From contig JBEKDT010000007.1 in assembly GCA_050014195.1 (NCBI GenBank), positions 128,001-192,000 of the forward strand: DNA of 64,000 bases. The letters are read 5' to 3'. The position numbers and the translations under genes were made by a program. The stretch is from Desulfomonilia bacterium. Lineage in GTDB: Bacteria; Desulfobacterota; Desulfomonilia; UBA1062. The notes under the pieces were generated by a model that did no database searches, was not told the DNA's origin, and saw only the letters and a program-made list of their open reading frames with translations. The stretch's first letter is position 1. Each line of letters opens with the position of its first letter. Shown here piece after piece: positions 1 through 16,139 of this stretch.

Positions 1-2188
1 AGCTTGCAGAGTGCCACATCATCGCGTGGCTTATGGCCTTGGCCATAGGGTGCTGAATCCGCTCAATGTCATCTTCCCATCGTGCACAGATTTGAGGTAA
101 GCACTCTGTATTCAACGTCAATGCAACCCGAAATTGTAACCCTCTCAGAATCGCCCCGGCCATCGCATCATCCGTGATGGATTGTCCGGTCTCGAGTGCG
201 ACAAACGGCAGCCATAGGAGTTGTCGCTCAACTTCACATTTTGCATCTTTACCATCTATTAATTGGAGTCGTATCGCTGTCTGGGCGAGCCGTCGAGGTT
301 CACCTCCAATGTATGCGTGGAAAAGAAGTGCGGCAGCCTCAAATGAGTCAAGTGTGTGTTTGGCTAGGATGGCGTCATGCAGGCAGATGTGTGCCCATTT
401 GCGTTTCTCCGGAGACCAGACATCTATCGCGACTCCGCTGAGTAGCGCCGTAGTTCGAAACCACTGACCTTCGACCAGCTCAAGCCATTTCCCAGTGAGA
501 TTGTCGAGGACATCCCCCCCGTTTGTAAGCCCCTCAACGGCCTCAGCCAGTCGAATCGCAATTGATCTGTGCATTAGTATGGAGCATTCAGAAACCATAT
601 AGACAAACTCAGCAATAGGGCCAGGCACAGAGTCGCTGAGTAGCTGTCTGGCCATCTGATGAACTGAAGTCACCGCCGATGATTGTGTGACGAGGTCAGT
701 TGCATTAGGTCTTGGCCAGTTGCGAGCAGCAATTTCGGCTAACCGAACCTGGACAAGTTTAGGATGGCCTCTCGTCCACGCCGTAATGAGAGTGCTCCAG
801 TACTTGGCAATCTCATGTGGACAACCGTGTTCGATGCACAAAGTCTCAGTTTCATCGGAACTGAGCTCAGGTACTTCGAGAAGCTCGATGTCGTTGAAAT
901 CCTGTACAATGGCCGAGTCGCTAGTTCCCCCTCGTGCGGTAAGAAGGATGCCTCGCCCTGAAGAACAAGCTCGATGCAAGACCAACGCAAGCGAATCTCG
1001 ATAGACACGGTGAGCCGACGGGCTGATATCCAGGTCATCGATAATAATTAAACTTGGGCAATACCCACTTTCGATTTGGCCTGCTAGTGCGAGAAGCACG
1101 CTGTCGACTTGGTCGACCATTCTCTCGGTTAGATTGATCCACCATGCCTCAGGGCACAGAGTTGAAGTAACAAGCTGTGCAGCTGTTGTCTTACCCTTGT
1201 AAACTGTACCAGTCAGCAAGACGACCTTGCGATGCTTGACCAAATCCTTCAGACGATGCGTGAGTGCAGGTCTTCTAAGTAGAGGCTCGGGCGGTCTTGG
1301 TGACTTCTCAAGCAAGAGATTAAGTAATCCCAATCCAGGCTGTACTTTAAAAATCAAAGCTTGGAGCTGATCCACCGCCACCGGTAGGTATATAGTGCTT
1401 GCTGTTTCGACCTGGCGAAGCAAATCGCCTCGGGTCAGATACCTTCTTGCAAGCGAGGGCTCCACAATAATCTCCCAGAAGCGGGACTCGAGATACTTTC
1501 GCACGGTTGGAATTAAGGCCAAAGAGCGTCGTTGATTGCTAAGGAAGACTGAGATACGGTCGTCAACACTTCGTTTGACTACATCAAGGTCCGGCTGATT
1601 GGTGAGCCAATGAAATCTTTGGATAAGACGTTTCTGGGCATGTTCTGGTGTTGTAGAAGTCAGGAACGCCTGTAACGGGCTGCTTTTATCCAGTTTTGAA
1701 ATAAGGTACTTTATCACAACAATGGCTAATTCGAGATTAGTCTGAGCTGCTCGCCAAACCTCAATGCCTTTTAAACCATCAAAGTTAGCATCCTGTTCCA
1801 TAGCAATGGAGCTGGTGGTCAGAAAGTGAAAGTCGATTTGTCGGTTCGATTCTTGGCTGGACAGGGTCCAGAAGTTCTCTAACGCCTCATGCGCTTTGGC
1901 GGTACCTAAAGAGATAGTCCCCATGTTCCGCTTGACTTGAACTGTGATAGCGGAATCAGTCCTGACAATGTCGAAGTCTTCTGCGCCTTCAAGGTAGATG
2001 ACTTCATCTGCATCAACTAACCGGAGCCATGCATCAATAGACCACCAAGCTTGATATACGTCCCCATAAGTTGAAGATACAGCTTGCCGCCGAGGGTCCC
2101 CAGCTAGTTGTTCAGGAAGACCTGTGATTTTTGCAAGAATATCGTCAATGTCTGGCAGACCACCAAGTCTAGATTCATGGTCAGGCAT
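1..2188 (-). CDS. Avs-like antiviral protein: N-terminal PD-(D/E)xK (Cap4/DUF4297-like) nuclease + STAND P-loop NTPase; 3' end outside window
   Basis: Manual translation from ATG 2188 is open to position 2 (>=729 aa); absent from the ORF track because there is no stop in the window. Motifs YQAWW..IYLEGAEDFDI..VQVK, Walker A GTVYKGKTT, Walker B IIIDDLD, GHPKLV. Confidence 0.8.
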   Translation of the reverse strand, partial: MPDHESRLGGLPDIDDILAKITGLPEQLAGDPRRQAVSSTYGDVYQAWWSIDAWLRLVDADEVIYLEGAEDFDIVRTDSAITVQVKRNMGTISLGTAKAHEALENFWTLSSQESNRQIDFHFLTTSSIAMEQDANFDGLKGIEVWRAAQTNLELAIVVIKYLISKLDKSSPLQAFLTSTTPEHAQKRLIQRFHWLTNQPDLDVVKRSVDDRISVFLSNQRRSLALIPTVRKYLESRFWEIIVEPSLARRYLTRGDLLRQVETASTIYLPVAVDQLQALIFKVQPGLGLLNLLLEKSPRPPEPLLRRPALTHRLKDLVKHRKVVLLTGTVYKGKTTAAQLVTSTLCPEAWWINLTERMVDQVDSVLLALAGQIESGYCPSLIIIDDLDISPSAHRVYRDSLALVLHRACSSGRGILLTARGGTSDSAIVQDFNDIELLEVPELSSDETETLCIEHGCPHEIAKYWSTLITAWTRGHPKLVQVRLAEIAARNWPRPNATDLVTQSSAVTSVHQMARQLLSDSVPGPIAEFVYMVSECSILMHRSIAIRLAEAVEGLTNGGDVLDNLTGKWLELVEGQWFRTTALLSGVAIDVWSPEKRKWAHICLHDAILAKHTLDSFEAAALLFHAYIGGEPRRLAQTAIRLQLIDGKDAKCEVERQLLWLPFVALETGQSITDDAMAGAILRGLQFRVALTLNTECLPQICARWEDDIERIQHPMAKAISHAMMWHSAS

Positions 2189-8707: not shown

Positions 8708-9121
8708 ATGTCATCATTGGGAGAAAGGATTAAAGAGTTGCGGCAATCCATGGGATGGACACAAGATAGGCTAGCTCAAGAGGCTGAAATTAGTAAGAGC
8801 TTTTTGAGCGAAATAGAAAACAATAAAGTTAGCCTTAGTGGAGAAAATCTCCTGAAGATTGCCAATGTTTTGAACACGTCTCTTGATTATTTAATGAAGG
8901 GTAATTATGTCTCAAGTGAAAAAAAACCTTCAAAACCAATTGAAATACCAAGGGAATTATCAGAGTTAGCAGAAGACCTTTCACTATCCCATAAAGCTAC
9001 ACTTGCTCTACTAGAGGCACATAACTCTCTGATTGCTAGGAGAAGTGATAAAGAAAAGACTGAGATGACCAAGGATAATTGGAGGGATTTATTTGAAAAA
9101 CTAAAAGAATATTTAAAATAA
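8708..9121 (+). CDS. XRE-family HTH repressor (CapH/ImmR-like)
   Basis: LGERIKELR..WTQDRLA..ISKSFLSEIEN..LLKIANVLNTSLDYL. Confidence 0.9.
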   Translation: MSSLGERIKELRQSMGWTQDRLAQEAEISKSFLSEIENNKVSLSGENLLKIANVLNTSLDYLMKGNYVSSEKKPSKPIEIPRELSELAEDLSLSHKATLALLEAHNSLIARRSDKEKTEMTKDNWRDLFEKLKEYLK

Positions 9122-9123
9122 AT

Positions 9124-10164
9124 ATGGACAAGCTTAACAATTCAAAAATTATTCAAAAAATAGCTAGTGAACTCGGATTAAAAAGGTATCGAGATGGACA
9201 AAATGCGATCCGAGAGTTCTGTATACAGGAAGTTGAGAATATAAAAACCCAGTTTGGCTTAATTGATAATCTTTCAAAGCTGTTAGAAGTTGTAAGTTCT
9301 TTTCTAAGGATTCGCTTTGAAGAGGTTAATGATGATAATGATATTGAAGCCATAAGTAAGAAATATCTAGCCCAAGGAGAACTAAAATTCGCTGATCTCT
9401 CAAGGGAATTGGATGCATCTACTGATGCAGTAATGATTTGTTTGATGAAAGATAAAGTATGGAGATATTCGGCAGTAATTGATTGTAGAGGATATAAAAA
9501 ATTCAGGGCTTATTTTACTAAATGGCATGAGGTTGCTCACATACTTACAAGATCTCCTCAAACTTTTCTTTTTCACCGAACTCCTTATTTTAAGAGAGAT
9601 CCTGAGGAAATATTGGTCGATAGGATAGCAGGTGATTTAGCCTTTTATACTCCCCTTTTTCTACCCGAATTATTGGCAAGGACAAAAACTACGAAACGGC
9701 TTACATTTGATATAATAGAGGAAATCCGTGAAATTGTTTGCCAAGGTGCAAGTAGAGAGGCAACAATTCGAGGAGCTATCTCAAGAGCACCTTTCCCTCA
9801 ATTAATGGTTATTGCAGATTATGGATTGAAAAAAAGTGAAGAAAAAGAATTATCCTCGAATCAGGGATTATTATTTACAGAGGGGAATGGTCAATTTTTA
9901 CCAAAGTTACGAGCCGTTGATGTTATTGTAAATAAACCAGCTCTTAATATAGGTTTATGGATTCATAAGAACATGGAAGTACCACAAGAATCCATTATTA
10001 GAAAAGCATATGAAGAATCATCTCCAAATGAGATTTATCATAACCGCGAAAACCTAAGCTGGTGGAAACATTCCCGAGGGGGACAGCTTAATAATATATG
10101 TGTTGATGTAGAAGTTACAAAGATAGGCAGACGTGTCTATGCTTTTATTAGTATATGCCCCTGA
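9124..10164 (+). CDS. ImmA/IrrE/CapP-like Zn metallopeptidase
   Basis: FTKWHEVAH (HExxH) plus downstream EE..DRIAG; 2 bp after the HTH gene. Confidence 0.75.
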   Translation: MDKLNNSKIIQKIASELGLKRYRDGQNAIREFCIQEVENIKTQFGLIDNLSKLLEVVSSFLRIRFEEVNDDNDIEAISKKYLAQGELKFADLSRELDASTDAVMICLMKDKVWRYSAVIDCRGYKKFRAYFTKWHEVAHILTRSPQTFLFHRTPYFKRDPEEILVDRIAGDLAFYTPLFLPELLARTKTTKRLTFDIIEEIREIVCQGASREATIRGAISRAPFPQLMVIADYGLKKSEEKELSSNQGLLFTEGNGQFLPKLRAVDVIVNKPALNIGLWIHKNMEVPQESIIRKAYEESSPNEIYHNRENLSWWKHSRGGQLNNICVDVEVTKIGRRVYAFISICP

Positions 10165-10211
10165 TTACCCAAAAAGCGCCGATAACAAGGAATATGTAAT
10201 GTTTGAGAACC

Positions 10212-10410
10212 ATGGTATTCTATATAGATCGTGCCAATATTTATACTTCTGCATGAGGCCATGAAAAGTATAGATCTTATCAGGAGATAGAAGCTTTCCT
10301 TGGCGTGCTAGAGTACATGTTAATCGTAGTAACCTATACTTTCGCATATATATGCCGAAATTTTAAGAGATCTATGCTGTGGCGATCTATTCCTTAAGTG
10401 CAGATCTCAT
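10212..10410 (+). repeat. Degenerate intergenic repeat, copy 1 (matches 16350-16560)
   Basis: 21 bp identical core GAGATAGAAGCTTTCCTTGGC at 10284-10304 and 16423-16443 with co-linear flanks. Confidence 0.7.
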
Positions 10411-10624
10411 TCGAGGCTGTTGAAAAACTCAGGGGCGAATAAAGATAAAAATTTCGACCTCACAGAATGCCCGACATTAGATTTTTCGTGAAAGAGACTT
10501 ATGTTTTGATGGTTCAATTTGGGGATTTTTCCAACTTTTTGGAGTTTTTTGATACCCATCTAAAAGGTTTACTCTTCCAAACATAAGAGCCGTTAACGGA
10601 TAAAAAGCAAAAGGAGGCAATCTT

Positions 10625-11650
10625 ATGGGAGAGCTGTATGTAGGGTTGGATCTGCATTCAGTGAACACGTACGTGGGCATCATGGAAGGTGAAACAAAGA
10701 GAAGGATATACCAGAACAGGCACAGGAATGAACTAGGGGAGATCCTGCAAGCGCTGGAACCGTATCGATGTGAGGTAAAAGGGATCGTTGTTGAGAGCAC
10801 GTATAATTGGTGTTGGCTTGTCGATGGGTTGATGGATGCTGGATATGATTGCGTTCATTTGGCGAATCCAGCTGCAATGAAACAGTATGAGGGGATCAAG
10901 TATAAAGATGACCGTCATGATGCATTCTGGCTCGCTCAGCTACTTATCCTTGGCATCCTTCCTGAAGGATATATCTATCCCAAAGAAGACAGGCCGGTGA
11001 GAGATCTATTGAGGAAACGAGCGTTTTTGATGCGGCACAGGACAGCCAATATCCTCTCATGCCAATCGATGATTGAGAGGAACACTGGGTTACGAATATC
11101 TGGAGCTGGGATCAAGAAGCTCTGTACAGAGGACTTGAGGAAGATCTTCGCTGATGATCATCTATTATTTTCAGGGAAGATGAGTACATTCATCATCGAT
11201 GTCCTGGATCACCATATTAAGAGTATTGAAAAGATGGTGCGCAAGGTCTTGAAGATTCGCCCGGGGTTTGAGGATCTGCTGACCGTCACTGGCATAGGAG
11301 ATATCCTGGCGATGACCATCATGCTGGAGGTGGGGAATATATCCCGGTTCCCTGGGGTAGGCAATTTTTCTTCGTACTGCAGGTGTGTCAACAGCGTTCA
11401 TACCAGCAATGGGAAGAAGAAGGGTGTTGGCAACACAAAGAACGGGAACAAGTATTTAGCCTGGGCATTTATGGAAGCGAGCAATTTTGCCAGGATGCAC
11501 AGTGAACGGGCGAATGCGTACTATCAGCGCAAGTCCCGGGAGACGAATCCTATCATTGCGAGGAAGGCGCTTGCGAACAAGCTTTCCCGTGCGTGCTACT
11601 ACATCATGAGAGATCAGGTTCCTTTCAGGGAGGAGGCCTTGTTCTCATAG
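10625..11650 (+). CDS. IS110 recombinase/transposase
   Basis: DEDD RuvC motifs VGLDLH, VEST, KDDRHDA; TVTGIG; SNGK; GNKYL; AGGAGG RBS. Confidence 0.95.
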   Translation: MGELYVGLDLHSVNTYVGIMEGETKRRIYQNRHRNELGEILQALEPYRCEVKGIVVESTYNWCWLVDGLMDAGYDCVHLANPAAMKQYEGIKYKDDRHDAFWLAQLLILGILPEGYIYPKEDRPVRDLLRKRAFLMRHRTANILSCQSMIERNTGLRISGAGIKKLCTEDLRKIFADDHLLFSGKMSTFIIDVLDHHIKSIEKMVRKVLKIRPGFEDLLTVTGIGDILAMTIMLEVGNISRFPGVGNFSSYCRCVNSVHTSNGKKKGVGNTKNGNKYLAWAFMEASNFARMHSERANAYYQRKSRETNPIIARKALANKLSRACYYIMRDQVPFREEALFS

Positions 11651-11654
11651 AATG

Positions 11655-12050
11655 GCTGGGGTGGTGAATCCGGAGAGACTGTTGGCTGACAACCAGTGTT
11701 TTTTGATTGATCCGCCACCCTATGCCCTAAAACTGAGATTATCCGGCAGGGAAGGATAATCCGTTTCTGATCCGCCTCTGGCATGAACCATGCGAGTTTG
11801 GACAAAGAGCCAAGGATTTTGAAATGAACATTTTGGACATGCCAGGGAACAGACGATTTTCTGGGGCCTGAAAATCAGGCCAAGGGTTACTAAGGCATTG
11901 GCTGTTGCTACGCTCCGAGATCCCTTTTGTCTCTCCGCTCCGCAACAGCCAGGCATGGCAACCTTGATCCCGATGGGTGACCGGTGCGGTTCAGGATAAA
12001 TGAATCGTAACCACATAAGAAAGAAATAACTGGTGTGGTATCGGAGATAG
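11655..12050 (+). ncRNA. Putative bridge/seek RNA of the IS110 element
   Basis: Stem-loops containing segments that match the target site (CTGTTG 11679-11684, GTTTTTT 11698-11704) and the circle junction (ATGGGTGA 11973-11980, GGTATC 12037-12042). Ends approximate. Confidence 0.7.
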
Positions 12051-12433
12051 ATAATCGTCCATGTTGGCGATACGGTAAACTCTGCAAGAGAAAAACGACT
12101 CTTGTATTGGGAGAGCTATTTTCTCATTGACAGAACCTTTTAATGGGCAACAGCCTCTTCTGATACCTTCAAGACAGCTAAAGCACAGATGTCCTCACGA
12201 GATGTGCTCATGTATGACAAGGTCATTTCTAGAAAGATCGTTATATCGATAGCCAAAAAATAAGCTTCTGATGAAGCATAGATATCATTTGAGAACCTGA
12301 TTCGATCCCTTTCATAATGTTATATGATATAGTATCATTTAATTTAAATAATACCGATATATTACTGCGGTAGAACTTATGTAGGCTAATTTAAGTATCA
12401 ACAGTCAAGAACATTGGGATAAATTATTGTCAC

Positions 12434-13195
12434 ATGAATACATTCTTGAAGTATATTAAATTATCTATACTTGCAATATCGATCTTCCTTTGCTCAGGAT
12501 GTGGTTCAATCTTTACATACTCTTGGATGCACTTTGGTACATATATCCAGCCAAAAACAAATAGAGAGAGGATAGATTATTTCATGGGTTCTCGAAGTGA
12601 TAGTTCTTTAATATATTCTCCACTTGCATCTTCAGGGGATAATATTTTAAGAGCACTTGCCATTTTTGATTTTCCATTGTCTTTTACTATTGATACGGTG
12701 TTATTTCCCTTCCTCATTGTTGAAAATACCACCCTTCAGCCCAAGTATCATTTTTTTAAATATCCTTTCGATGTAAGTCGATCAGATAGTAAGCTTATCC
12801 AAGATCTATGGATTTCTGACGATCGTGGTTGTGTACTTTATCTAGAGTTCGACTATACTGATTTGTCGGATGCGGACCGTGTTTTTAAGCTTGTTGGTGA
12901 AGCTAAAGGGCATGATCCTGGGATAGTAATTCCACTCCATCTAAGGATTCTGAACATTGACAACAAGGAATTACCCCCAAAATTAATTCATGAATACACA
13001 GTCTTAACACAAAATCAGTATTCGCATGGTGCTCGGGATTATTGGCGAGAATTATCAAGAATTGCTCTTACTCAAGGAATTTATCGTGTTGAAGTCAGTA
13101 CCATAAAAGAGATTCCCGAATTCTCAGGAATTTCAACATATATTCAAATGTCGAAGCCAATTCCATTCTGGAGCCCATACATGTTCCATGATTGA
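12434..13195 (+). CDS. Lipoprotein, YceK/YidQ-like N-terminus + DUF5625-like C-terminus
   Basis: Lipobox CSGC; DFPLSFTIDTVLFPF motif; C-terminal beta domain. Family names from recall. Confidence 0.6.
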   Translation: MNTFLKYIKLSILAISIFLCSGCGSIFTYSWMHFGTYIQPKTNRERIDYFMGSRSDSSLIYSPLASSGDNILRALAIFDFPLSFTIDTVLFPFLIVENTTLQPKYHFFKYPFDVSRSDSKLIQDLWISDDRGCVLYLEFDYTDLSDADRVFKLVGEAKGHDPGIVIPLHLRILNIDNKELPPKLIHEYTVLTQNQYSHGARDYWRELSRIALTQGIYRVEVSTIKEIPEFSGISTYIQMSKPIPFWSPYMFHD

Positions 13196-13652: not shown

Positions 13653-16139
13653 ATGAAAAAACATTTTTCTGTTAGTTTGATGGCCATTCTAATTCTAGTC
13701 TTGACTCTCTCTGGCTGCTATCTCCACAGCCGAGCTTTGACCACAACTTCATCTTCATCCACAAAATATTTTGCCTATGTCGCTGGTGGAGTACGCAATT
13801 ACATCTACGCCTATTCCATTAACGCCACGACCGGCGCGTTGACAGTTGCTTGCGGAAGTCCCTTTGCCACCAGTTCGAGTCCTCAATCAATCACAGTGGA
13901 CCCGATCGGTAAATTCGCTTATGTGACAAGTCAATTTTCAAATAATATCTCGATTTATTCCATTGACGCCACGACCGGTGCGTTGACTAAAATAAGTGAT
14001 AGCCCCTGTGCTGCCGGGTTGAGGCCTCTGTCAATCACCATGGACCCGACAGGTAAGTTTACTTATGTCACAAGTCATTTTTCAAATAATATCTCGGTTT
14101 ATTCCATTGACGCCACGACCGGCGCATTGACAGAAATAAGTGATAGCCCCTTTGCTGCCGGTTTGAAGCCTCAGTCAGTCACCGTGGACCCGACAGGTAA
14201 ATTCGCCTATGTCGCAAATCTTGGTTCAAATAACATCTCCACCTACTCTATTGATGCCACAACCGGTTCTTTGAGAGCTATTAACGGAAGTCCTTTTGCC
14301 GCTGCTTTAAACCCTAAATCAGTCACAGTGGACCCGACCGGTAAGTTCGCCTATGTCGCAAATCTTGGTTCAAATAACATCTCCGCCTACTCTATTGATA
14401 CCACAACCGGTTCTTTGCGAGCTATTGACGGAAGTCCTTTTGCCGCTGCTTTAAACCCTGAATCAGTCACAGTGGACCCGACCGGTAAGTTCGCCTATGT
14501 CGCAAATCATTCTTCAAATAATGTCTCAGCCTATTCCATTGACGCCACGACCGGCGCGTTGACGGAAATAAGCGATAGCCCCTTTGCTGCCGGTTTGAGG
14601 CCTCTGTCAGTAACAGTGGACCCAACAGGTAAATTCGCTTATGTCGTAAATTTTAGTTCAAATAATATCTCAGCCTATTCCATTAATGCCACGAGCGGAG
14701 CATTGACGTCTATTAGCGGAAGCCCCTTTGATACCGTTTCGGAATTTTCATCAATTATTACTGTAAGAATAAAGCATACACTGAGTTGTGGTAGCAATTG
14801 TAACACAGGAAGTGTAGGCACTCCTTCGGTTAAAATGAAAAATACAAATCTTGTAGATCTAACAAGAAATATTTCTTTATGGACATGGGTATCCGGGGAT
14901 ATTTCGGTTGACCAGATCGGGGTTTATGGCACTAAAGGAGTTGCTGCAGCCACAAATAAACCGGGAGGGCGGGTTGCTAGCATAAGTTGGACGGACAGCA
15001 AAGGTAATCTCTATCTCTTCGGTGGGTTTGGATATGACAGCGCAGGAAGTTTGGGATGGCTCAATGACCTATGGAAATATGACAGATCTGACTGGACATG
15101 GGTATCCGGGGATATTTCGGTTAACCAGATCGGAGCCTATGGCACTAAAGGAGTTGCTGCAGCCACAAATAAACCAGGGAGTCGGTGTGAAAGCATAAGT
15201 TGGACGGACAGCAGAGGTAATTTCTGGCTCTTCGGTGGGAATGGGAATGACAGCTCAGGAACGACCAACGGCGGTTATCTTAATGACCTATGGAAATATG
15301 ACGGAACGAACTGGACCTGGGTATCCGGGGATAATACGCAAGGCCAGCTTGGGGTCTATGGCACTAAAAGAGTAACATCAGCCACGAATAAGCCGGGGGC
15401 TCGGATCGGCAGTATAAGCTGGATGGACAGTAGTGGCAATCTCTGGCTCTTCGGCGGAAGGGGATTTGATGGCACAGGCATTGGGTATCTCAACGACCTG
15501 TGGAAATTCGACGGTGCCAACTGGACCTGGGTATCCGGGGATAGTATGGTTGCCCAGAACGGGGTTTATGGTACTAAAAAAGTTGCTGCTGGCACTAACA
15601 AACCAGGTGCGCGGAGTGGGAGCATAAGCTGGATAGACAGCAGCGGTAATCTGTGGCTCTTGGGTGGAGGTGGGTTTGACAGGGCAGGAAATTGGGGTTG
15701 TCTCAACGACCTGTGGAAATACGACGGTGTCAACTGGACCTGGGTATCCGGGGATAGTTACGTTAACCAGATCGGAGCCTATGGCACTAAAGGAGTTGCT
15801 GCAGTCACGAATAAACCAGGGGCACGGTTCGACAGCATAAGCTGGATGGATAAAAGTGATAATCTCTGGCTATTCGGCGGGATAGGTTATGACAACACAG
15901 GAAAATATAGTAGTCTCAACGATCTGTGGAAATTTGACAGAAAGGACTGGATCTGGATATCCGGGGATAGTACTGTTGACCAGAGCGCAGTCAATGGCAC
16001 TAAAGGAATTGCTGCAGCCACGAATAAACCGGGGGCACGGTTCGGCAGTATAAGCTGGATGGACAGCAATGGCAATCTCTGGCTCTTCGGCGGAAGGGGA
16101 CAAGGTGTTTTCAACGACTTATGGAAAGTCTCACCATAG
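13653..16139 (+). CDS. Lipoprotein with lactonase-type beta-propeller and kelch-type repeat domain
   Basis: Lipobox LSGC; ~7 x 47-aa VDPTGKFAYV repeats; ~6 x ~73-aa LWLFGG..LNDLWK repeats. Confidence 0.9.
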   Translation: MKKHFSVSLMAILILVLTLSGCYLHSRALTTTSSSSTKYFAYVAGGVRNYIYAYSINATTGALTVACGSPFATSSSPQSITVDPIGKFAYVTSQFSNNISIYSIDATTGALTKISDSPCAAGLRPLSITMDPTGKFTYVTSHFSNNISVYSIDATTGALTEISDSPFAAGLKPQSVTVDPTGKFAYVANLGSNNISTYSIDATTGSLRAINGSPFAAALNPKSVTVDPTGKFAYVANLGSNNISAYSIDTTTGSLRAIDGSPFAAALNPESVTVDPTGKFAYVANHSSNNVSAYSIDATTGALTEISDSPFAAGLRPLSVTVDPTGKFAYVVNFSSNNISAYSINATSGALTSISGSPFDTVSEFSSIITVRIKHTLSCGSNCNTGSVGTPSVKMKNTNLVDLTRNISLWTWVSGDISVDQIGVYGTKGVAAATNKPGGRVASISWTDSKGNLYLFGGFGYDSAGSLGWLNDLWKYDRSDWTWVSGDISVNQIGAYGTKGVAAATNKPGSRCESISWTDSRGNFWLFGGNGNDSSGTTNGGYLNDLWKYDGTNWTWVSGDNTQGQLGVYGTKRVTSATNKPGARIGSISWMDSSGNLWLFGGRGFDGTGIGYLNDLWKFDGANWTWVSGDSMVAQNGVYGTKKVAAGTNKPGARSGSISWIDSSGNLWLLGGGGFDRAGNWGCLNDLWKYDGVNWTWVSGDSYVNQIGAYGTKGVAAVTNKPGARFDSISWMDKSDNLWLFGGIGYDNTGKYSSLNDLWKFDRKDWIWISGDSTVDQSAVNGTKGIAAATNKPGARFGSISWMDSNGNLWLFGGRGQGVFNDLWKVSP
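13770..14760 (+). repeat. 141-bp coding tandem repeats
   Basis: Repeated gtggacccga..ggtaa.ttcgcctatgtcgcaaat units, some nearly identical. Confidence 0.85.
14875..16130 (+). repeat. ~220-bp coding tandem repeats (kelch)
   Basis: tgggtatccggggata...ggcactaaag...ataagctggat units. Confidence 0.85.

Follow-up and report, generated by a model that had tools for sequence, protein, structure and literature searches.

The window analysed here, a stretch of 64,000 nucleotides (nt) from a Desulfomonilia bacterium, carries at positions 10550..12147 of the plus strand a 1598-bp insertion sequence of the IS110 family, which on the features tested is an IS1111-group element with a target-binding loop of the seekRNA/bridge-RNA kind. 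The best explanation of the whole, and one that we consider highly probable, is an IS1111-type element whose RNA 3' of the transposase gene combines a target loop (module 1) with a guide for the right end of the element (module D). An earlier note on this DNA had read the region as an IS110-family element with a 3' non-coding RNA whose guides match its own junctions, calling the two structures loop 1 and loop 2; the match between guides and flanks described below supports this overall reading, and the statement that the specificity can be decoded from sequence alone holds for the target and fails for the donor.

Boundaries and classification of the element

The boundaries TTTTT/TGATACC and AATGGG/CAACAG, which the earlier note had assumed, are supported by empty copies of a host repeat, by a similar element in another metagenome-assembled genome (L004), by the end consensus of the family and by a metagenome contig. 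The element lies in a repeat of about 150 nt (10413..10549, plus strand, completed by 12148-12157), whose right inverted repeat, GAGTTTTT/CAACAGCCTC, is the target and which has related copies on contigs C18 and C9. Two repeat copies of the same genome that lack the insert read GGAGTTTTTCGACA, running through CTGGAGTTTTTCGACA, and the left inverted repeat of the interrupted repeat, GAGGCTGTTGAAAAACTC (10413-10430), reads GAGTTTTTCAACAGCCTC on the minus strand. Joining 10542-10549 to 12148-12157 gives exactly GAGTTTTTCAACAGCCTC as the reconstructed empty site, and because the joined flanks equal this sequence, the insert extends from 10550 (TGATACC...) to 12147 (...AATGGG) with 0 duplicated bases. 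In L004 the element is 86% identical and its alignment with the window extends from about 10544 to 12158; outside 10550-12147 the two loci have in common only the target motifs GTTTTT and CAACAG.CTC, the neighbours beyond are unrelated, and the L004 target is GGTTTTT/CAACAGTCTC, so that the same element type is seen at an unrelated locus. The metagenome contig contains 10520-10549 exactly, a 30-mer that is unique in the genome, and continues directly with CAACAGCCTC; since it departs from the right flank of the window after 10 nt, it is counted as an uninterrupted target copy only and not as proof of excision.

Relatives were collected by a scan of one genome per species, which gave 599 candidate stretches, 538 of them encoding a relative; 80 of the 538 were kept, and the kept set comprises 79 loci with a protein identity of 52-89%. 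In 53 elements, namely the window and 52 loci, it was possible to place both ends with no less than 10-12 nt of flank, the right ends being set by the TTGAC...ATGG pattern, or by local alignment in L039 and L052, and the truncated L040 being left out. The relatives have common ends, TGATAATCAT(C/A)TA.. on the left and ..CTTGAC..TAATGGG on the right, as well as a hairpin after the stop codon.

The left subterminal inverted repeat of the window element, CCCATCTAAAAGGTT (10555..10569, plus strand), leaves TGATA (5 nt) outside it at the left end, and its partner, AACCTTTTAATGGG (12134..12147, plus strand), reaches the extreme right end; the same subterminal layout is found in the relatives. Between them lies a transposase gene of 341 aa (10625..11650, plus strand), with a DEDD/RuvC-like N-terminal domain followed by a Tnp domain, and the non-coding lengths are 497 nt 3' of the gene vs 75 nt 5' of it. 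The protein matches PF01548 DEDD_Tnp_IS110 (E 1.1e-8) and PF02371 Transposase_20 (E 8.6e-15) in Pfam, and scores 172 bits against the NCBIfam equivalog NF033542, 'IS110 family RNA-guided transposase', whose cut-off is 140. With phmmer it aligned end to end with the IS621 protein (8wt6_A, E 1.7e-6) and likewise with the solved ISCro4 recombinase. The residues opposite positions 13, 62, 104, 107 and 243 of the 8wt6_A chain are D, E, D, D and S; under an assumed chain offset of +2 these positions are equated with D11, E60, D102, D105 and S241, the four acidic catalytic residues and the catalytic Ser whose roles are described in PMC11208158. It has been reported that the IS1111 group is distinguished by subterminal inverted repeats with a terminal extension, a long downstream non-coding region and a transposase of 330-350 aa (PMC11187229), and the same layout is present here, with subterminal repeats and a 5-nt left extension, a downstream non-coding region and 341 aa. 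The element appears intact by its sequence and is present in one copy in the 4.2-Mb genome. Rfam gave 0 matches over 10100-12500 at E up to 1, and a scan of the linear element for promoters and terminators remained at chance level.

Module 1, the predicted target-binding loop

Module 1 (11653..11729, plus strand) begins three bases past the stop codon. Its outer stem measures about 10 bp and its CC/GG clamp 2 bp; the two guide slots are located in an internal loop, and the inner hairpin is GG/CC. Its fold is stable relative to shuffled sequences (z = -4.0; 0/200 shuffles as good), and RNAalifold on 30 non-identical relatives found compensatory changes in 13 of its 16 pairs, the outer stem among those that covary. 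A covariance model of the module matches the window with 54 bits, the window sequence being in the training set, and finds a second copy neither in the window nor in the genome. The strings that the earlier note had placed here, GGGTGG (11659-11664), CCACCC (11715-11720), CTGTTG (11679-11684) and GTTTTT(T) (11698-11704), are all present.

The right target guide, GAGAGACUGUUG (11673..11684, plus strand), pairs with the top strand of CAACAGCCTCTT (12148-12159) through 10 Watson-Crick pairs, 1 wobble and 1 mismatch over 12 positions. The lone internal mismatch falls on a C in the window target, where the L004 site has T; on that site the same guide forms 10 Watson-Crick pairs and 1 wobble and is perfect over 10 nt. 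The left target guide, GUGUUUUUUGA (11696..11706, plus strand), has the same sense as GAGTTTTT (10542-10549) followed by TGA and would pair with the bottom strand; it is identical to that sequence at 10 of 11 positions (p ~8e-6 at the fixed register, assuming equal base frequencies) and includes an exact 10-nt match to the left junction, GTTTTTTGAT. The register of both guides was fixed by a profile hidden Markov model (HMM) built from the hairpins alone, with the flanks unused, and L050, L051, L054 and L056 were left out for want of an HMM anchor; this fixed register was used because the longest exact run proved too noisy a measure of the guide-flank match.

With this register it was found that the guides follow the flanks of their own elements. 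Over the 8 non-core positions of each slot, counting Watson-Crick pairs only and using 41 distinct guide pairs, the 5' slot matches its own flank at 4.80 positions vs 3.29 for the flanks of others, and the 3' slot at 4.66 vs 2.72; for neither slot was the observed match attained in any of 100,000 permutations. The signal is located at right-flank positions 3-9 and left-flank positions 1-5 beside the core. Covariation of loop 1 with the targets of relatives had been set beforehand, in the earlier note, as the test on which its reading could fail, and both slots covary. The guides proposed there are thus real and far beyond chance, with the correction that they are about 11-12 nt long rather than 6-7 and overlap on the core: CUGUUG and GUUUUUU are the inner ends of longer guides, and the GUUG of CUGUUG is also part of the conserved stem of the inner hairpin. 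Judged from these comparisons, module 1 corresponds to the target-binding loop of a seekRNA or bridge RNA, the target specificity of which can be read from the sequence. Sites with at most 1 mismatch to GGAGTTTTTYRACA number 23 in the genome, as compared with 8 for the reversed control.

The two-nucleotide core

Each slot of module 1 finishes on a 2-nt core, where the 5' slot has U-UG and the 3' slot UG-A, and when wobble is counted the core positions pair in 0.98-1.00 of representatives. Most relatives have a TG core, to which the 3' slot is matched by Watson-Crick pairs and the 5' slot by G-T and U-G wobble. The right flank begins with TG, as the left end does, in 45 of 52 loci, often as TGA, and the TG on both sides is probably the duplicated crossover core, comparable to CT in IS621. 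The window and L004 have a donor-type TG at the left junction (10550..10551, plus strand, in the window) and CA at the right junction (12148-12149); their target core is CA, and the pairing roles of the two slots are therefore swapped. If a crossover took place around a 2-nt core that is mismatched, its heteroduplex would contain two G-T pairs, and one of the segregants after replication would have such TG/CA junctions. In L078 CGA stands on both sides, which means that the first bases assigned to the left end can come from the target.

Module D and the ends of the element

Module D (11960..12033, plus strand) consists of a conserved 5' block, AACCUUGAUCCCGAUGGGUGACCGGUGCGG, an inner hairpin and a conserved 3' block, GAAAUAAC-UGGUG. 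A family-wide block of the form CCUUGAUCC-Y-GAUGG(G/A)UG-NN-YGGUGC(G/A)G is found at +74 to +582 from the stop codon. The motif AUGGG-UG-AC (AUGGGUGAC, 11973..11981, plus strand) reads in the same sense as the right-end terminus, then the core, then the two flank bases that follow the core. In 48 of 52 loci the right end closes with the same five letters that precede UG in the motif, two of these loci having ATGGA in both places; the exceptions are one AUGGA with ATGGG, two AUGGG with ATGAG and one aberrant locus. The two letters after UG, which occur in four states (AC, CC, CA and AA), agree with positions 3-4 of the right flank in 46 of 52 loci and in none with positions 3-4 of the left end; counted over distinct module D sequences, 38 of 43 match the right flank, a value reached by 0 of 100,000 permutations. 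In the window AUGGG-UG-AC faces ATGGG-CA-AC, with which it is compatible through wobble. Since the letters after UG track the right flank, the motif follows the right junction, beyond the circle junction alone, and it is best read as a putative left-donor guide, that is, a guide for the right end, with a handshake-like extension.

The earlier note had described loop 2 as a two-guide donor loop, and its strings ATGGGTGA (11973-11980), GGTATC (12037-12042), TCCCGA (11968-11973) and TCGGAGA (12041-12047) are all present. Of these, ATGGGTGA, taken there for the circle junction, exceeds chance only by virtue of family conservation and covariation, and its last two letters follow the right flank, not the left end; AUGGGUGA(C) stands as a conserved guide-like motif, whereas GGUAUC and the closing stem fail in relatives. 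The stem UCCCGA/UCGGAGA is formed in the minimum-energy fold of 11945-12090 in the window (z = -1.9; 6 of 200 shuffles as good), but over 42 relatives it pairs in 47% of cells vs 31-43% for slid controls and is not conserved. Another candidate closing helix, CCCG (11969-11972)/CUGG (12030-12033), pairs in 84% of the relatives' cells vs 27-59% for slid controls, with no covariation; its consensus, CCYG/CRGG, lies directly 5' of AUGGG and 3' of GAAAUAA, and if this is the closing helix, GGUAUC, being 3' of it, falls outside the loop.

GGUAUC (12037..12042, plus strand), proposed as the guide for the left end, is judged a chance match. Relatives with a GATAAT left end carry a GGGUGCGAA-type sequence, not AUUAUC, where the window has GUGGUAUCGG, and in L004, the closest relative, the left end is GATAGC but the corresponding site reads GAGAUC, both having changed with no compensation. 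In 48 distinct downstream regions the best ungapped complement to the left end scores 6-9 of 11 and has no constant position; the GGUAUC site of the window scores 7.5 and is equalled by another site in the window. By chance, a stretch of 130 nt should hold about 0.2 six-mers complementary to the opening 12 nt of the left end. Of a two-guide donor loop like that of the IS621 bridge RNA, the right-donor guide was not found. Because no left-end guide was found and the short seekRNA of ISEc11 alone supported movement, recognition of the left end by the protein is possible.

Proposed mechanism and alternative explanations

In the proposed mechanism, the 3' non-coding region would be, most likely, the tail of the transposase transcript, carrying three structured modules, and we infer that such an RNA is made and is bound by the transposase. 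Right of the insertion point, the top strand (CAACAGCCTCT) would be bound by the 5' slot of module 1; left of it, the bottom strand (GAGTTTTT) would be bound by the 3' slot. The UG in each slot would pair with the core, TG in the donor or CA in the target, by Watson-Crick or by G-U/G-T wobble. The right end, or 'left donor', would be recognised by AUGGG-UG-AC of module D, a guide that reaches over the core in the manner of a handshake guide. A presumed circle with the junction AATGGG/TGATACC would then be carried by the complex of recombinase and RNA to the GAGTTTTT/CAACAG sites in the inverted repeats of the ~150-nt repeat. A more detailed version goes further and, although possible, is somewhat doubtful: a three-module guide RNA mirroring that of IS621, in which the UG reads TG, CG and CA cores by wobble and the third module, module M (described below), provides a second target specificity. 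In this version the bottom strand would be exchanged first, because the left (bottom-strand) guides of the target loop and module D both extend across the core, and, the wobble of UG accepting transition variants of the core, a donor with TG could enter a target with CA, the arrangement found in the window and L004.

Several observations weigh against the reading of module 1 and module D as target and right-end guides of a mobile IS1111-type element. The element is single-copy despite about 20 target-like sites in the genome, one of them perfect and only 130 bp off at 10413-10430; the circle-junction joint AATGGG/TGATACC was not seen among metagenome contigs, the search covering contigs only; and the predicted junction promoter has a poor -10 element (GATACC, with the final T absent), so that the window element may be weakly active or inactive. 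For module 1, the fit to the right flank is poor in L018, L029, L032, L074 and L079, among others, and the permutation tests for both module 1 and module D ignore phylogenetic relatedness. For module D, 6 of the 52 loci break the right-flank rule, and the four states of its letters probably reflect about three independent changes; in the window its reading is not unique, because the inverted repeat makes GAUGGGU complementary to the ACCCATC of the left end. The bottom-strand guide is 5' in module D but 3' in module 1, which would be unexpected of homologous loops. No helix of module D has covariation support, RNAalifold giving no meaningful consensus; single-sequence folds disagree among 10 elements, and an all-against-all scan for pairing columns was uninformative, the columns being conserved. 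Finally, a search of the 48 downstream regions from module D to the right end gave no consistent complement of the left end.

In one alternative explanation, module 1 would be the sole guide RNA, equivalent to a short seekRNA, and module D a scaffold, a processing signal or a protein-binding element, its likeness to the right end being a by-product of the inverted repeat and both ends being recognised by the protein. For ISEc11, PMC11187229 reports that the 82-nt short seekRNA was sufficient for transposition and describes the function of the long form as unknown; a left-end guide was not found here, module D has no covariation-supported helix, and the ends hardly vary across the family, so that conservation of AUGGGUG alone is no proof of a guide. 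A pure scaffold, however, would not be expected to have letters after AUGGGUG that follow the right flank in 46 of 52 loci and the left end never, and AUGGA goes together with the right end ATGGA in 2 loci (with 1 counter-example); we regard this alternative as unlikely. Much less likely still is the full model of the earlier note, in which a donor loop closed by UCCCGA/UCGGAGA holds ATGGGUGA as the guide for the right end and GGUAUC as that for the left. All its strings are present and the minimum-energy fold of the window does pair the stem. The absence of AUUAUC at the homologous place in GATAAT-end relatives, the non-compensatory GATAGC/GAGAUC of L004, the pairing of the stem in 47% of cells vs 31-43% for slid controls and the chance expectation for a six-mer match all speak against it.

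The core itself admits another interpretation, according to which no core is shared: insertion in the sub-lineage of the window would take place between T10549 and C12148, and the TG that relatives have on either side would reflect a target preference. The junctions of the window and L004, which have no common duplicated bases, agree with this. On the other side, TG stands at both the right flank and the left end in 45 of 52 loci and CGA on both sides in L078, and both guide slots span the core and pair with it almost throughout when wobble is included, which makes this interpretation improbable, to about the same degree as a sole guide in module 1. The reading of module 1 as the target loop and of module D as the right-end guide is preferred.

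Module M and other features of the 3' region

Between module 1 and module D lies module M (11767..11866, plus strand), a second hairpin that is built like a target-binding loop and occurs family-wide, with the slots AUGCGAGUUUG and AAGGAUUUUGA. Its layout comprises an outer stem, GA.CC, a slot, an inner hairpin, a second slot and UUGGA, and an alignment of 26 relatives contains compensatory changes in 7 of 16 predicted pairs. The 3' slot tracks the left flanks (0 of 100,000 permutations); for the 5' slot, whose register is not anchored, 14,305 and 40,599 of 100,000 permutations reached the observed value. In the window the slots show no fit to the target beyond the core and the T run, and the target predicted from them has no exact site in the genome, the best site having 1 mismatch, with 153 matches at up to 3 mismatches vs 70 for the control. 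It was also considered whether the 3' slot runs into a copy of the left end, a candidate that was rejected, as the AACCA covariation seen in L025 and L030 occurs also in relatives with a different left end.

Searches with nhmmer found second copies of the loop in relatives and none in the window. Complete target-binding hairpins stand in tandem in some relatives, the positions from the stop codon being +191 to +262 in L037, +125 to +195 in L050 and +106 to +171 in L060. In L037, L045, L052 and L060 it is the second loop that agrees better with the actual flank, which suggests that tandem target loops are duplicated, independently evolving specificities.

In addition, a 9-bp hairpin, GGCUGUUGC...GCAACAGCC (11900..11951, plus strand), has arms that correspond to the right junction, G/CAACAGCC, and its complement. 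Matches of at least 9 nt like this one arise in 1.3% of non-self pairings, the 5' arm is mismatched in L004, and copies of the right junction in the middle region give no family-wide signal (self mean 6.17 vs non-self 5.90); the hairpin may have arisen by chance, may mimic the target or may be what is left of an additional guide.

The joined ends of relatives form a sigma-70-like promoter, TTGAC(N)-N15-18-GATAAT, with GATAAT present in 44 of 53 elements, and this supports the circle junction that we infer. In the window, TTGACA (12127..12132, plus strand) would be the -35 half of the predicted junction promoter, which on circularisation reads TTGACA-N16-GATACC. The left-end bases that weaken the -10 element of the window improve the inverted repeat with the right end (CCCAT/ATGGG); the -10 element of L004 is GATAGC.

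The host repeat and neighbouring genes

The dispersed repeat of about 150 nt that contains the element has 18-nt terminal inverted repeats, GAGGCTGTTGAAAAACTC ... GAGTTTTTCAACAGCCTC, and is found also in L002 (~1480-1620, minus strand) and L003 (~1500-1650, minus strand). Its copies show paired changes in both inverted repeats (TTG/CAA in the window, TCG/CGA elsewhere), and about 20 sites resembling the inverted repeat occur in the genome; the perfect target copy GAGTTTTTCAACAGCCTC at 10413-10430 on the minus strand, 130 bp from the element, is unoccupied. The repeat has no Rfam match, and it could be a miniature inverted-repeat transposable element (MITE) or a structured element.

Upstream of the repeat lies a gene pair (8708-10164) that encodes a small helix-turn-helix protein, XRE-like by eye, and then a 346-aa protein with the HEXXH-like motif WHEVAHIL; by sequence, the pair looks like the ImmA/IrrE type. 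Downstream, 13653-16139 encodes a secreted protein of 828 aa with 'DPTGKFAYV...SNNIS.YSID' repeats followed by Kelch-like 'WTWVSGD' repeats.

Relation to known systems and significance

The closest published systems are the seekRNA elements of the IS1111 group, ISEc11, ISPa11 and ISKpn4 (Siddiquee et al. 2024, PMC11187229), which resemble the window element in the DEDD transposase, about 340 aa long, in the terminal extension of the subterminal repeats and in the long non-coding region downstream of the gene. They are alike as well in the guide hairpin adjoining the stop codon, in the 5' position of the segment complementary to the top strand and in the overlap at the insertion point, IS1111 seekRNAs having been reported to carry the top-strand match 5' and the bottom-strand match 3', overlapping one another; the repeated, foldable target and the predicted junction promoter are further common features (PMC11187229). 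The window element differs in its non-coding region of about 500 nt, the published long seekRNAs measuring 145-170 nt (PMC11187229), and in having a second conserved guide-like module about 250 nt downstream with a target-like loop between; the likeness to ISEc11-type elements is drawn here at the level of layout. The figures or supplements of PMC11187229 may show comparable extra loops, and IS1111 structures in PMC11208160 may show extra modules.

The IS621 bridge RNA system (Durrant et al. 2024, PMC11208160; Hiraizumi et al. 2024, PMC11208158) involves a recombinase of the same protein family as the window transposase, and in both RNAs one guide pairs on the left of a 2-nt core, with the bottom strand, and the other on the right, with the top strand; putative handshake extensions cross the core in the window as they do in IS621. 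The window RNA lies 3' of the gene, whereas that of IS621 lies 5', and the order of the guides in the target loop is reversed; the extensions are on the left (bottom-strand) guides in the window and beside the right (top-strand) guides in IS621 (PMC11208158). In addition, a right-donor guide was not found in the window, and its core is TG, mismatched with a CA target, as compared with the CT core of IS621 (PMC11208160, PMC11208158). No description of donor-end recognition in IS1111 elements was found in the available portions of the literature searched, including a 2026 review, which is no proof that none is in print.

For the host genome the finding is an ordinary one, a single-copy insertion sequence of a class already known, located in a dispersed repeat. 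Meanwhile, genome-writing tools are being developed from RNA-guided recombinases of the IS110/IS1111 type. Less is understood of the IS1111 branch, where published work covers the reading of the target and not the reading of the element's own ends. The window element and some 50 relatives with readable junctions constitute a natural data set for target specificity, which suggests rules for the IS1111 branch, namely a TG core read by wobble, handshake extensions on the left guides and an extra target-like loop.

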